Positions 6,497-32,866 of a stretch of 64,000 nt of DNA are shown in pieces; the stretch's first letter is position 1; each line of letters opens with the position of its first letter. The notes beneath the pieces were generated by a model, which worked only from the letters and a program-made list of their open reading frames with translations, made no database searches and had not been told where the DNA came from. This DNA comes from a virus. The stretch covers positions 32,001 to 96,000 of IMG/VR virus record IMGVR_UViG_3300026493_000016; one strand, written 5' to 3'. The position numbers were made by a program, and so were the translations under genes.

Positions 6497-6648
6497 AACT
6501 TTTTCTCAGTCTCAAAAATTTTTACCTCAGGTACAGTGGGGTACAAATAATACTTGACATTTGTATGGGAATTTGGTAGGGGCGGGGTTATAGCACATCT
6601 GGTCGAGTATGTCAAGTATGCACATCGAATTAAATTTGTCAACTAATA

Positions 6649-6672
6649 ATTGGAGGGGGTACCCCCTCCAAT
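6649..6672. terminator. perfect 24-bp palindrome at the point where + and - strand genes converge
   Basis: ATTGGAGGGGGTACCCCCTCCAAT. Confidence 0.6.
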
Positions 6673-6675
6673 ATA

Positions 6676-7011
6676 CTATTTATTCCATTTGCGCAAATTG
6701 TCTATTAAGTCCTCACACGCTCTGTCTATATGCTTTAATCCGCTATCCGTAACGTGTTCACCCTTAACCACTCCTGACACTACTGCACTAATACGCTTGG
6801 ACACATAGCCAGCCTCAATCGTAGCAAGTTCACGCTTTAAGCCGCTCATACCCTTACCTATAAGGTTGATAGCGTCCACTATACCCACGTGCATATGAGC
6901 AGGTAATACAACCGAGTATGTCTTTCTAGTAGTGTACATAGCACCAAGCACCTCAGCATGCTTAGCAATAGTTTCAAGTTCAATAATAGCCAGTTCTATA
7001 TTAGCGTTCAT
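6676..7011 (-). CDS. hypothetical protein
   Basis: ORF track; RBS AAGGATGG. Confidence 0.75.
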   Translation of the reverse strand: MNANIELAIIELETIAKHAEVLGAMYTTRKTYSVVLPAHMHVGIVDAINLIGKGMSGLKRELATIEAGYVSKRISAVVSGVVKGEHVTDSGLKHIDRACEDLIDNLRKWNK

Positions 7012-7075
7012 AGTAATCCCATCCTTATATAATAGTATTTGTCAAGCGTTAATTATAAGGGGCTCAGCGCCCCGA

Positions 7076-7591
7076 CTAGCAAGTGTATACTGATACTGCA
7101 CCTTCGATATCGAAGTACTTTTTAAGCTTCGTACGCATCGCCTTAGCTGCCTTAACTGCTTCCTTCTCATTGTAGTACGTACCGAAGTATACGCAGAACA
7201 TATAATTCCCATTCTCATCATATGCAGAGAATTCGCAGTCATATACTTCCTCTCCGTCTTCGTCGTTATTATATACCATAACTGTATGGTAGTCAGCGTC
7301 TTCCCATTGCTCCGCTAACTCCTCTTTATATTCTGCTTTAATAGCAGTAATATTCTTGACATCATATGGAAGTTTAACCTCTTTAGTTTCTTCCTTAACC
7401 GGATGCACTAAAGACATTTTATCGTTATCTAAATCAATTGGGAACCAGTCTAAACCATTGTCAACCCATGCAATATTACCAGCGTCATTTAAGTCAACCA
7501 TACGTCCAGTGAAAGAACGTCCATCTAAAGTAGTAACCATTACCTCTTGATTCATCATATCAACCGCATTAATTGTGTTAGTCATTTTCAT
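7076..7591 (-). CDS. protein with N-terminal LSm/Sm-like domain and acidic C-terminal domain
   Basis: NQEVMVTTLDGRSFTGRMVDLNDAGNI resembles the Sm1 motif; own promoter TTGCAA-17-GATATT. Confidence 0.65.
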   Translation of the reverse strand: MKMTNTINAVDMMNQEVMVTTLDGRSFTGRMVDLNDAGNIAWVDNGLDWFPIDLDNDKMSLVHPVKEETKEVKLPYDVKNITAIKAEYKEELAEQWEDADYHTVMVYNNDEDGEEVYDCEFSAYDENGNYMFCVYFGTYYNEKEAVKAAKAMRTKLKKYFDIEGAVSVYTC

Positions 7592-7699
7592 CTACCATCC
7601 TTCGTTATGTAAGCTAGCAAGGTGTTTCCCTGCTGCTCTTATAATATCTCATATATCGACGGCAATTGCAAGCACTATTCTTAAAGTAAAACTATTCAT

Positions 7700-8837
7700 A
7701 ATTGTCAGAATCTTTTATACAATTAAATTGTCAGAATATTACGAATAAACTATTAACTTGACATAAGTCTAATAGTATGATAGATACACGCACGCACACT
7801 CATGCAATATAATAGGGCATTCTAATTGTCAGATAGTTTGAATTGTCTGATAACTTCCCATAACATACTATTGGCTGTTTGTCAAATCTTATTTAAGAGC
7901 CCTCACAAGCCCGTACAGCGATTCTAGGATATCCCACTAGTATTTGTATTAGGAAGGCTGCTAGAAGCCCATACAGAGCAAATAGCCTCCCAAGCCAGTC
8001 ATACCAAGGGCTCACAAATTGACAGACTATTCTAACAGCTTACCATTGTCAGATAATTCATACTATTCTAATTGTCAGAATATTAAGACTGCTATTACTA
8101 TCACATACACTGCTCCTTGTCAAGTATACAGTGTATTCTAAATTGTCTGATAACTTGAATAGTCTGATAACTTAACAGCAGTTCAGTCACCCAACAATTG
8201 TCAGAATATTCACGCTAGTGATAATTGTTTGAAAAGTCTGACTAACATAATAGTTCGAATTGTCAGTTAATTCTATTGTACACCTCTACAATTGTCAGAC
8301 TATTTGAAACATTCATACTGTTCAAACTGTCAGACTATTCACAATATACCGAACATTCTAATTGTCAGACTATTCAATCATTCGCAATTATCAGACTATT
8401 CATAATAATCAAACAAAAATCACCGAGGGTTTTTAAATAAATTATCAGACAATTCAAATAAATCCGAACAATGGCAATATTTAGAGCATTTTAATAGTCA
8501 GACTATTTAGAACATTCATACTATTAACGCAATTGGCAATATACTAGCTATTCTTATTGTCAGACTATTCATACAACTTACCTACATGTATATTGTCGGA
8601 CTATTTAGAACATACTAATTGTCAGACTAATCTTTTAACTTGACAAACTGCCTCATCTGTGGTATTTATACGTGAGCTAATTGTCAGACTACTCAATTTG
8701 TCAGAATACTTACAATATTACGCGTATTCGACAGCACTTTACATGCGTCAACATAAATGATATTCTTATGGAGCAGGACGAATAAATATTTGTCGTCTTG
8801 TGTAGCAGAGGTATAACGACTGAATTGTCAGATAACT
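7700..8837. repeat. array of 24 copies of a 15-bp imperfect palindrome, consensus AATTGTCAGACTATT (CodY-box-like)
   Basis: copies start at 7700, 7726, 7824, 7841, 8017, 8044, 8070, 8141, 8158, 8196, 8232, 8258, 8290, 8325, 8360, 8386, 8440, 8493, 8555, 8591, 8617, 8679, 8696, 8823. Confidence 0.9.
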
Positions 8838-8969
8838 GCTAATAGTACGATGGGCTTGTTTGCTCATGTACTAAATGGGACAAGGTATACAATTGCCCAT
8901 GTGTTCTAGGGAGCTACTAAGCAACCTCGAGCCTTTCCAGTGAGCTACTAGTAGATTTAATGATTACAT

Positions 8970-9005
8970 AAGAAAAGCCCCGCAATCGCTGCGAGGGCTC
9001 TTTTG
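8970..9005. terminator. bidirectional intrinsic terminator
   Basis: AAGAAAAGCCCCGCA...TGCGAGGGCTCTTTTG. Confidence 0.65.
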
Positions 9006-9305
9006 TTGTTCATAATACATTTGTACTAGTTAGTTTGTAAAACGACGTGTAACGGAGTGTGAGACACCTTAAAACACCTGTACAAGTTTGCAGAACGGGC
9101 ATATACTCGTGTACAAGGATGCAATCTACTCTATCTAGCATGAAGCGTGTATCCGAGAAAAACCTGAGGCTCTGATATCAGTCTTTCAATTAGTTGTTCT
9201 GATATAACTCTTTAGGGAGGCTCTGATATAGTGTTATTGTAATGATTGATATTAATTAGTTATTGTAAGGCTTCTTATTGCCTCTCTGTACGCTATTGCA
9301 TCAGT

Positions 9306-9596
9306 CTAGTGTAATACAATCCCCTTAACACTGATAAGCTCATACAAAGGAAGTGTGAACGCCTCACTGTTATTATCCGTGAATTCTACCCATGAATTAT
9401 GTTGTTCATGTACATCATATATAATACGTTCTAGTTTAACTAAGTCCGATGTGATAAACTCACGTACCTTAGAATCATTACCCATTATCTTATACTCCCT
9501 ATATACAATATGGAAGTGTGTTGCATCTTCCTTTAATGCTTGTAATAGTTCTTGCCATTCCATAACCATTGTTGATGAATAGTATTTGATTGCCAT
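9306..9596 (-). CDS. hypothetical protein, paralog of 10809-11090
   Basis: shared R.F..T....L..I.Y and F.D......P...L/I pattern. Confidence 0.75.
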   Translation of the reverse strand: MAIKYYSSTMVMEWQELLQALKEDATHFHIVYREYKIMGNDSKVREFITSDLVKLERIIYDVHEQHNSWVEFTDNNSEAFTLPLYELISVKGIVLH

Positions 9597-23313: not shown

Positions 23314-23345
23314 TAAAAAAGCCTGACAGAATTGTCAGACTCTTT
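23314..23345 (-). terminator. intrinsic terminator containing an AATTGTCAGACT motif copy
   Basis: AAAAAAGCCTGACA-GAAT-TGTCAGACTCTTT. Confidence 0.65.
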
Positions 23346-23396
23346 ATAACTACCACTATTATTCTTGGTCGGCGCCTCTTGTGTTCCAGTGAGCTA

Positions 23397-23849
23397 CTAG
23401 TCAAATGAACCGCATGAATCTGAGGAGCTACTAGAACCCCCTCCGTCGTCATTGTAACTGCGCCCACAACTTGGAGCTGGTGAGCTACTAGGCGTATACG
23501 TCGGTGTGTTAGGTGATGTAAAGAACGACACACTCAAATCATCTCTATCATCCCAGTTCTTACGCGTATCTTTAGGTCTAGTAGGTGTAGGTGGTCTCTT
23601 TACATGAAGCCTAAACCCTTTATCACTCAATGGTGTTTTATGTTTGCTAGGGTTAAAGTTACTCTTAATTAGATACTCTCGCGTCTCTCGTCTAACCTCT
23701 TCCAACCTAGCTTTATTATTCGCCTCAACAGCGTCATTCATGTCCTTACTTAATCGTCTATCCTTGTTCTTTGGAGGTGTACTATTAGAATACATACGCA
23801 CAATAAAGTATATTGCACACAGTCCAAAGAATGCTAATAAGATACTCAT
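23397..23849 (-). CDS. membrane-anchored protein with Ser/Gly-rich tail
   Basis: N-terminal TM; C-terminal GGGSSSSSDSCGS. Confidence 0.8.
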   Translation of the reverse strand: MSILLAFFGLCAIYFIVRMYSNSTPPKNKDRRLSKDMNDAVEANNKARLEEVRRETREYLIKSNFNPSKHKTPLSDKGFRLHVKRPPTPTRPKDTRKNWDDRDDLSVSFFTSPNTPTYTPSSSPAPSCGRSYNDDGGGSSSSSDSCGSFD

Positions 23850-31873: not shown

Positions 31874-32866
31874 CTATTTAATTTCGTTGTAAGCTTTAGC
31901 GAATACAGGAATCATAAGAAGTATCGAAATGACTACAGAGATAAGTCCGATTACGATGGCGCTTTGACGTAATGATTCATCATCACTAGTAATAGCTACC
32001 GACATAAACGCGATACTCATAAGACTGATATAGATAATGGATAACGCTGTAGTGATATTCTTTAATAGTTTCATAATTTATCCCCTTTTAAACATAATGT
32101 ATGCAAATGCTACTAACAAACACCACACTAACGGAGGTCCTAGTAGAACTACCGCTAGTACACCTAACCAGAAATCCGGAATAGTGAAACTAATGTCCAT
32201 TACTTATCCTCCCCGAACGCTTTATTTACTGCGAAGCGGAGACCGATTAATTCACACATCCTATCATCGGTATGACCGTGTTCTTCTTGTACATTGTCCC
32301 AGAATTCGAAGTACTCTTCCTTAGTTGCGTTCTCACTTAACCAAATTAGCTTGTCCGCTTGCGCTGGTGTCATTAGTTCTCCTCCTTAATCTCTGCTCGT
32401 AAGAACCACTTCATGTCCGATACGGCTTGTTCGACTTTGTCTAGTTCACCTAGCATACGTTGTACATCCTGTTCTGTATATAGTTGTACTTCCGCCTTAG
32501 CTAGTGCACTGTCAATCTTACTAATCTTCCCTTGAATAAAATCCTGCATTGCCGCTTTCTCCTCTTTCGTATACTTACTCATTATTTACCCTCCTTAGCG
32601 TTATAGATTAACTCAGTAATCTCAGCAACAGTATTCTCTGTTTGAATGTACATTATGCCACCACCCTTCAATAATCTAGTGAGCTACTTACTCTCTTTGT
32701 GTTTCTTAACTTTTAGAGCCACATAAGCCCCGATACCACCTAACAATACGTAGAATAGTAGAGTTGAAATGGATGGGAATAGCTGGATGATAATATTAGC
32801 GACGGTTAACCCTCCTATAATAGCAAGAACACCTACAATAGCTTCCTTAACCTTGTCCGGTAACAC
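31874..32866 (-). CDS. small genes incl. two membrane proteins (31874-32074, 32373-32582, 32684-32866)
   Basis: ORF track; hydrophobic helices. Confidence 0.7.

Follow-up and report, generated by a model that had tools for sequence, protein, structure and literature searches.

A predicted array of CodY-type operator boxes in the gene-free terminal repeat of a Bacillus cereus-group phage

What is the function of a gene-free tract at the very start of a phage genome, and why should such a tract be filled with copies of one short, near-palindromic sequence? The question is relevant to about 100 sequenced phages of the Bacillus cereus group, several of them proposed for biocontrol, whose genomes start with 1.1-1.5 kb that annotation leaves featureless and 'empty'. 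It is approached here through a stretch of 64,000 nucleotides (hereafter the window, to which coordinates refer), representing positions 32,001 to 96,000 of the IMG/VR virus record IMGVR_UViG_3300026493_000016, in which 23 boxes of this kind lie between 7700 and 8837. Sequence comparison identifies the source as a myophage of the B. cereus group that belongs to the Bastillevirinae, a subfamily of the Herelleviridae, and lies near the genus Wphvirus, and from these relatives the host can be inferred as a member of the B. cereus group. The answer put forward, as an evenly balanced judgement, is that the tract represents an array of operator boxes for CodY, the nutrient-sensing global regulator of the host, within the non-coding outer part of the terminal repeat, with a proposed gating of transcription by CodY. 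The phage, on its sequence, probably reads or soaks up the CodY of its host.

The array itself can be described by four entries.

7700..8837, + strand: box array, 23 boxes of 15 bp (plus one weak box), consensus AATTGTCAGA(A/C)TATT
7700, 7726, 7824, 7841, 8017, 8044, 8070, 8141, 8158, 8196, 8258 and 8290, + strand: starts of the first 12 boxes
8325, 8360, 8386, 8440, 8493, 8555, 8591, 8617, 8679, 8696 and 8823, + strand: starts of the last 11 boxes
8493..8507, strandless: perfect 7-1-7 palindrome AATAGTC-A-GACTATT (AATAGTCAGACTATT), with an equal match score on both strands

The position weight matrix of the boxes reads A-A-T-T-G-T-C-A-G-A-(C/A/T)-T-A-T-T, with C7 and G9 invariant, and the consensus takes the form of a near-palindrome, AATnGTC-A-GACnATT. 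When both strands of the window are searched for AATTGTCWGACTATT, allowing up to three mismatches, 49 matches are returned compared with 8.1 +/- 3.4 in shuffled sequences, and 42 of the 49 fall within 7700-8837, where they correspond to the 23 distinct sites. The 9-mer core ATTGTCAGA, allowing one mismatch, occurs in 22 plus-strand copies in the array tract and in 16 copies, counted on both strands, in the remaining 62.9 kb. Across the 145,872-bp record, exact AATTGTCAGA is found 11 times in the forward and never in the reverse direction, with ten of the 11 in the array, and the density of boxes in the tract is about 100 times that expected by chance. A 24th and weaker box, at 8223, is picked up solely by a scan with the CodY consensus, so that the 24 copies in about 1.1 kb counted in the initial annotation of this DNA become 23 clear copies and one weak one; the perfectly inverted arms that it saw at 8493 are indeed those of a perfect palindrome. 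It had also placed the array in a 1.7-kb non-coding gap, and no credible open reading frame (ORF) is present between 7592 and 9305, where all ORFs are of 57 amino acids or fewer and many of them begin at a TTG within a box. No Rfam match and no tRNA were found in scans of this gap.

What is it about the box that suggests CodY, a protein described from B. cereus and B. anthracis in the literature? The strong operators of this regulator, such as those of braB, hutP and ureA in B. subtilis, are 24-nt sites in which two AATTTTCWGAAAATT-type boxes of 15 bp overlap by 6 bp (PMC4608796, PMC10415144). Crystal structures of CodY with DNA reveal a recognition that depends mostly on shape readout, with base-specific contacts at the T6C7/GA step alone, and CodY dimers bind cooperatively to boxes that are offset by 9 bp (PMC10415144), the offset that the initial annotation had given for strong sites. 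Within the box G9 and A10 are 'very highly conserved', and a change in either lowers the affinity for CodY by at least 10-fold (PMC4608796).

Compared with the consensus AATTTTCWGAAAATT, the 23 boxes of the array have two mismatches in four copies, three in ten, four in eight and five in one (median three), which means that 14 of them lie at the two to three mismatches that had been claimed for the better copies. The array is thereby made up of 15-bp pseudo-palindromes that stay within about five mismatches of AATTTTCWGAAAATT. There are 21 sites in the record with three or fewer mismatches from this consensus, and 15 of these are located in the 1.15 kb of the array, where a composition-matched Markov model predicts 0.15; the density of the motif is thus far above the AT-rich background, a comparison that the initial annotation had raised. 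The positions critical for CodY are kept, with T6 in 22, C7 in 23, G9 in 23 and A10 in 22 of the 23 boxes, and they are kept likewise in the boxes of four phage genera, while the centre of the box is solely A or T in the array and its relatives, matching the W of the consensus.

Some copies can be compared directly with boxes from bacteria. In Streptococcus salivarius, boxes upstream of CodY-regulated genes include AATATTCTGACAATT (thrC), AATTGTCAGAATTTT (ilvE and lysC) and AATTGTCTGATAATT (livK) (PMC5966866). The strong CodY site II of B. subtilis braB, which has been footprinted, consists of AATTgaCAGAAtATT and tATTaTCTGAcAATT, and its motif 3 has also been mutated (PMC4608796). The predicted thrC box of S. 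salivarius has as its exact reverse complement AATTGTCAGAATATT, which is present in the window at 7726, 8070 and 8196, and these same three copies are one base off motif 3 of braB site II, so that the array contains both an identity to a regulon-linked CodY box and a near-identity to an experimentally bound one. In the related phage TsarBomba, AATTTTCAGAATTGTCAGAATATT agrees with the optimal overlapping double CodY site at 22 of 24 positions. On these comparisons the boxes are closer to those of CodY than the initial annotation could know.

The likeness to the CodY operators of the Firmicutes therefore covers the 7-1-7 pseudo-palindrome with its AAT/ATT ends, the T6/C7/G9/A10 bases and the W centre, a distance of two to five mismatches, which functional sites show too, the identity or one-base difference of some copies from published boxes, a spacing compatible with a register of about 9 bp and, in relatives of the window phage, some truly overlapping boxes. 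The differences are in the setting. The known operators are on the host chromosome with one to five boxes per promoter, whereas here a virulent phage has 23 boxes in a gene-free repeat of 1.1 kb, with G5 nearly fixed and all copies facing one way. Other candidate motifs fitted more poorly than CodY, including the Spo0A 0A box, the DnaA box and the sites of Fur/PerR/Zur, TnrA/GlnR and ScoC, as well as parS, Chi and the SpoIIIE or FtsK polarity motifs. The idea that each box is a sigma-A promoter, with TTGTCA as its -35 element, was also rejected, as no consistent -10 element was seen at 16-18 bp either by eye or in a promoter scan. An exact-pattern scan of bacterial genomes for the box gave scattered single matches only.

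The 9-bp offset of cooperative CodY binding leads to the question of how the boxes are spaced. The lattice of 9 bp described in the initial annotation is real in the window, where 18 of 22 spacings equal 0 or 8 modulo 9 and the periodogram of the array has its best period at 8.8 bp, with a power of 10.7 compared with a maximum of 10.2 in 300 null arrays, but it does not extend to the family as a whole. The 8.8-bp peak is significant in Hakuna and Goe5 too, is weak in SalinJah, W.Ph. and Evoli, and was not found by periodogram in the arrays of BigBertha, AvesoBmore and TsarBomba, such that Bequatrovirus and Tsarbombavirus are without the lattice. The lattice of about 9 bp is thus no family-wide requirement, and it may largely be a trace of the growth of the array by units of 17, 26 and 35 bp. 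Overlapping pairs of boxes do occur in Megatron, W.Ph. and TsarBomba, and one uncultured phage (G302, L148:7600-7900) has tandem 9-mers, four to five in number, namely AATTGTCAG AATTTTCAG AATATTCAG AATATTCGG. These tandem 9-mers flank TATATATA-rich promoters, and many of the boxes of G302 are preceded by CGGC(A/G).

How widely is the box maintained? Pooled copies from four genera of the Bastillevirinae, 179 from Wphvirus, 44 from Bastillevirus, 37 from Bequatrovirus and 12 from Tsarbombavirus, share one consensus, and the orientation of the boxes relative to the genome end is single in Wphvirus and Bastillevirus and mixed in Bequatrovirus and Tsarbombavirus. In alignments with five Wphvirus phages the identity is 79-85% in the 10-bp core of the box, 73-76% in the 5-bp arm and 56-61% in the spacers, a contrast between core and spacer that is somewhat inflated by the tendency of the aligner to lock repeats together. 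As far as these alignments go, the boxes are under tighter constraint than the spacers. In TsarBomba the array is found inside a terminal repeat of 6,364 bp, and no homologue of gp1 or gp2, the first two genes of the terminal repeat in the window, was found in this phage. Because TsarBomba has the array without both genes, neither product would be the required partner of the array, and gp1 and gp2 were ruled out as the binder of the boxes.

The box is not restricted to this subfamily. An exact-pattern scan of IMG/VR returned the identical 15-mer many times in contigs that do not belong to the Bastillevirinae. For instance, a 38.5-kb fragment of an uncultured phage has 30 exact cores in 12 kb, and a complete uncultured phage of 123,246 bp (G304, L261-L263) has 15 exact boxes, all of which lie within about 11 kb spanning the ends of the record. 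The endolysin of G304 combines an Amidase_2 domain with three CW_binding_2 domains, which indicates a Gram-positive host of the Clostridia type. G304 also encodes gyrase A and B, PhoH and at least 23 tRNA genes, and the contig G303 is the same phage. Within the uncultured phages the boxes are intergenic, positioned after terminator hairpins and near strong sigma-A-like promoters, either singly or in twos and threes. A fixed distance between box and promoter was considered for these phages and rejected, since a promoter lies within 90 nt on one side of 14 of 46 boxes and on the other side of 10 of 46, with gaps of 16-59 nt.

Fundamental to the interpretation of this distribution is that the phages concerned have so little else in common. 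A single ORF of the 418 in the record weakly matches anything in 119 kb of the uncultured phages, and no CodY GAF or helix-turn-helix domain was found in the phage of the window or in the box-bearing phages searched. Because the same box is present in four genera and in unrelated phages with almost no shared proteins, the distribution favours, as the simplest explanation, a conserved host factor with a specificity that is Firmicutes-wide, as is that of CodY.

A number of observations nevertheless weigh against CodY, and several of them would suit a different binder, either a protein encoded by the phage or a host protein other than CodY, such as a repressor of the terminal repeat or of early promoters, in which case the likeness to the CodY box would be a coincidence or a form of mimicry. 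All 23 copies of the array share a single orientation on the + strand, which a symmetric dimer does not need. Position 5 is a G in 75-87% of the copies in four genera and is almost never the T of the consensus, which is unexpected if CodY alone shaped the boxes, and which is far stricter than the loose shape readout of CodY would require. A fixed G5 was dropped as an exclusion of CodY, however, and that objection is removed because G5 is common among real CodY boxes, being found in the strong braB site and in many boxes of the S. salivarius regulon. Full boxes in the window are at least 17 bp apart, making true overlapping pairs rare here. The array was not found in Bcp1 (Caeruleovirus, with the same host group) or in phiAGATE (B. 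pumilus), the two Bastillevirinae tested in this respect. The equivalent gene-free gap of Bcp1 (L141:2892-3712) houses about six copies of a different, TACTATATAG-like repeat and no CodY-like boxes. Furthermore, among the unrelated box-bearing phages a host type is indicated for one, G304, and the scoring of CodY likeness was by mismatches from the consensus. Most proteins of the phage are without known function, which also speaks for a phage-encoded binder. Against such a binder stands the presence of the same box in lineages with almost no detectable shared proteins, and in TsarBomba without gp1 and gp2. A factor that co-evolves with its phage should also drift in specificity, whereas the four genera keep one consensus, and a match at 13 of 15 positions to one known regulator, inclusive of the critical bases and the 9-bp register, is unlikely by chance. 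A binder other than CodY is consequently regarded as somewhat unlikely, though it has to be taken seriously.

Where, then, is the array placed within the phage genome? Three features define the end of the DNA.

6575..9165, - strand: predicted direct terminal repeat of about 2.6 kb, from homology to phages with mapped ends
9165, - strand: predicted physical left end of the virion DNA, with the genome start AGGTTTTTCTC...
8997..9165, - strand: highly conserved terminal block of about 170 bp, from alignments with relatives

In the assembly the terminal repeat is collapsed to one copy. Relatives with determined ends have the homologous tract at the very start of their records, from position 1 to about 1,535, and once more at the right end, and it is contained in the annotated terminal repeats of BJ4 (2,823 bp) and BigBertha (2,577 bp, given as a repeat_region). 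Ten phages with mapped ends have records beginning in (A/G)GGTTTT, a start to which position 9165 of the window corresponds in alignment, while the inner boundary of the repeat, at about 6575 (+/- about 50 bp), was inferred from the boundary sequence of BigBertha and TsarBomba (...CTACC^, where the caret marks the boundary). The array is accordingly predicted, on this homology, to form the outer, gene-free part of the terminal repeat of about 2.6 kb, at a distance of 330-1,470 bp from the physical end. The same layout, of an end followed by 1.1-1.5 kb of gene-free DNA and then gp1, recurs in 98 phage records. A much longer terminal repeat, of roughly 15 kb and reaching to a single box at 23330, finds no support in the homology mapping.

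The two boundaries of the repeat (about 9158-9168 and about 6570-6580 in the window; L016:2570-2590; L143:6355-6375) look related to one another in an inverted sense. The left boundary reads GAGCCTC^AGG and the right boundary ...CTACC(C)^C(A/C)GG(C/G)CT in BigBertha and TsarBomba; the predicted inner boundary of the window is without the second half of this right-boundary sequence. The genomes of four genera start with (A/G)GGTTTT and continue with CTAGA and TGCATC motifs, and the block at 8997-9165 is almost invariant among Wphvirus phages, as for instance in ATACATTTGTAC...GTAAAACGACGTGTAACGGAG...CTTAAAACACCTGTACAAGTTTG.

The location of the boxes within the terminal repeat, at 330-1,470 bp from where the DNA physically ends, together with their arrangement as same-strand, semi-regularly spaced repeats in AT-rich DNA, could also mean that they serve as iterons for a phage replication initiator or as recognition sites for the terminase that makes the repeat. 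Origin or packaging iterons had been offered as an alternative in the initial annotation, and the idea has lost ground to the scattered terminator-promoter boxes of other phages and to the better-conserved sequence at 8997-9165. The array starts 330 bp from the predicted end, whereas the block adjacent to the cut surpasses the array by far in conservation and, with the (A/G)GGTTTT end, gives a more natural signal for a terminase. By its conservation, this block is a likely terminase or end-processing signal and a better candidate for a packaging signal than the array. With respect to replication, there is no initiator-like gene linked to the array, the boxes point both ways in Bequatrovirus and Tsarbombavirus, and in uncultured phages they are spread across 11-12 kb of early genes. 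Overall, iterons or terminase sites are very unlikely. Plasmid and phage iterons do share with the array a clustering of same-sense protein-binding repeats, as does the DnaA-titrating locus datA of Escherichia coli, a precedent for a DNA element whose function is to sequester a regulator, but no initiator gene was found in linkage with the array, nor an unwinding element, for which no examination was made, and the box of the array matches a transcription regulator. A further parallel is with the long terminal repeat of coliphage T5, which has a non-coding repeat region, the injection-stop region, that is linked to a two-step injection of the DNA. Both tracts are free of genes and rich in repeats, and both lie within a long terminal repeat in large virulent phages, but the repeats are unrelated in sequence, the present box is found in other phages away from terminal repeats as well, and we know of no two-step injection in the Bastillevirinae.

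How might CodY operators act from such a position? The answer depends upon the transcription signals within and around the array.

7753..7781, + strand: sigma-A-like promoter candidate, rightward (TTAACT, 17 nt, TATGAT), from promoter scan and conservation
8617..8710, + strand: box-promoter-box module, every element of which is kept in Hakuna, Megatron, SalinJah and W.Ph.
8978..8996, strandless: GC-rich hairpin flanked on either side by T-runs, which terminates the leftward operon that has its end at 9306
7076..7591, - strand: gp1, 171 amino acids, first gene of the terminal repeat, phrog_2236
6676..7011, - strand: gp2, 111 amino acids, second gene of the terminal repeat, phrog_2782
6649..6672, strandless: bidirectional terminator hairpin after gp2, from a scan

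In the orientation of the window the order is thus the leftward operon ending at 9306, the terminator at 8978-8996, the array, the gp1 promoter region, gp1 and gp2, and the terminator at 6649-6672. The TTGACA hexamers that had been noted at 7758 and 8640 are both present, and each is associated with a candidate promoter flanked by boxes. The first overlaps the promoter candidate at 7753-7781, which has a box 12 bp upstream (7726-7740) and boxes downstream (7824 and 7841), and of which ACTTGACAT and TATGATA are kept in six Wphvirus phages. The second, at 8640-8645, is the -35 element of the module at 8617-8710, where it follows the box at 8617-8631 after 8 bp and is itself followed by a 17-nt spacer and TGG-TATTTA at 8660-8668, with the boxes at 8679-8693 and 8696-8710 covering approximately +3 to +35 of the expected start. 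The hairpin at 8978-8996 has four stem pairs that are preserved through two-sided (compensatory) changes in relatives, and it possibly terminates rightward transcripts of the array too.

The plan of terminator, boxes and promoter seen in the array is that of the uncultured phages, greatly expanded, and because of this match CodY is proposed to coat the tract and block its promoters. In well-fed cells CodY would cover approximately 1.1 kb of DNA, from the terminator at 8978-8996 on one side to the gp1 promoter on the other, binding cooperatively where the boxes fit the register of about 9 bp. Once bound, it would repress or block the box-flanked embedded promoters at about 7753 and about 8640, and perhaps gate the gp1-gp2 operon too, such that transcription of the terminal repeat would track the nutritional state of the host. 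A second effect is possible late in replication, when the 23 boxes on each replicated genome could drain the free CodY of the cell.

Could the second of these effects be the sole reason for the array? The boxes would then be CodY sites selected purely as a copy-number-dependent sponge that, with genome replication, would deplete free CodY and thereby switch on host genes for amino-acid supply and uptake to the advantage of the phage, with the local promoters irrelevant. A cell of B. subtilis contains up to 10,000 protomers of CodY (PMC5314169). In terms of numbers, 23 boxes in each of about 200 genome copies would be comparable to this pool of at most 5,000 dimers; 23 boxes in 1.1 kb also far exceed the need of one promoter, and they lie in otherwise gene-free DNA. 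In other phages, on the other hand, one to three boxes stand at a terminator-promoter junction, which has a regulatory look, the array itself contains two conserved box-flanked promoter modules, and many of its copies are at four to five mismatches, all of which makes a pure sponge unlikely. Doubtful to a similar degree, though broader in scope, is the proposal that unrelated virulent phages carry CodY operator arrays and that the one described here would act as a DNA decoy of rising dose, stripping CodY off the chromosome so as to turn on host genes for amino-acid synthesis, peptide uptake and proteases that feed phage production.

If CodY does bind, what would follow? Neither this tract nor the occurrence of CodY boxes in phage genomes was found described when the full text of papers in PubMed Central and bioRxiv was searched. 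The nearest comparison is with the virulent Bacillus phages phi29 and Nf, in which Spo0A boxes and parS sites tie early transcription and replication to the state of the host (PMC2731898). In both situations a lytic Bacillus phage bears sites for a global regulator of its host, but phi29 and Nf are linked to Spo0A and sporulation rather than to CodY and nutrient supply, phi29 has a few sites that lie at particular promoters and origins rather than a 23-copy array, and in phi29 the link was shown by footprints and genetics, whereas the present CodY sites are predicted ones. Binding of CodY would therefore give a second case, different from the Spo0A boxes of phi29, of a strictly lytic phage wired to a host global regulator, and the presence of 23 sites at both genome ends would make titration of the regulator plausible. 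It raises the question of whether large Bacillus phages sense, or reset, the nutritional state of their hosts.

The same promoters bring in one further possibility, which is that the repeats act as RNA rather than as DNA. Here a rightward transcript from about 7753 or about 8640 to the hairpin at 8978-8996 would contain many AAUUGUCAGA units that bind a protein, perhaps the Sm-like gp1. All 23 copies are on the strand that is read by the candidate promoters, these promoters and the terminator are conserved, and the predicted structure of gp1 (predicted local distance difference test score, pLDDT, of 88) has an N-terminal Sm/LSm/Hfq-like barrel at residues ~13-62, followed by a C-terminal helix-sheet-helix (alpha/beta) domain. 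The boxes are palindrome-like, however, and both strands carry them in two other genera as well as in uncultured phages, TsarBomba has the array without gp1, there is no Rfam match, and little covariation is seen beyond the terminator. A role as RNA is highly improbable on this evidence.

Several smaller observations concern the genes and elements around the array. The C-terminal domain of gp1 has no Foldseek match in the PDB, and in Megatron-type phages gp1 is about 75 amino acids longer. A homologue with 49% identity (P0014) is encoded on a 99-kb contig in an assembly of Bacillus thuringiensis serovar toumanoffi, which suggests that a bacterial genome project contains DNA from phages of this kind. 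In the local comparison of phages, Hakuna alone had a homologue of gp2. Two more elements complete the description.

8911-8919 and 8942-8950, + strand: two copies of GAGCTACTA, within the conserved stretch TTCCAGTGAGCTACTAG
23330..23344, + strand: satellite box AATTGTCAGACTCTT, the sole exact AATTGTCAGA of the 146-kb record that is not part of the array

The stretch TTCCAGTGAGCTACTAG is invariant in all Wphvirus phages compared, and GAGCTACTA is present in two to three copies, with three in Hakuna and Megatron. It recurs downstream of the singleton box at 23330 (23391-23490). This satellite box is embedded in the palindrome CTGACAGAATTGTCAG and is preceded by GGGTTTTAAAATAAATAAAAAAGCC, which in turn resembles GGGTTTTTAAATAAATTATCAGAC at 8428-8450 in the array, and the segment 23280-23345 may be a short duplicate of part of the array, placed where early genes meet.

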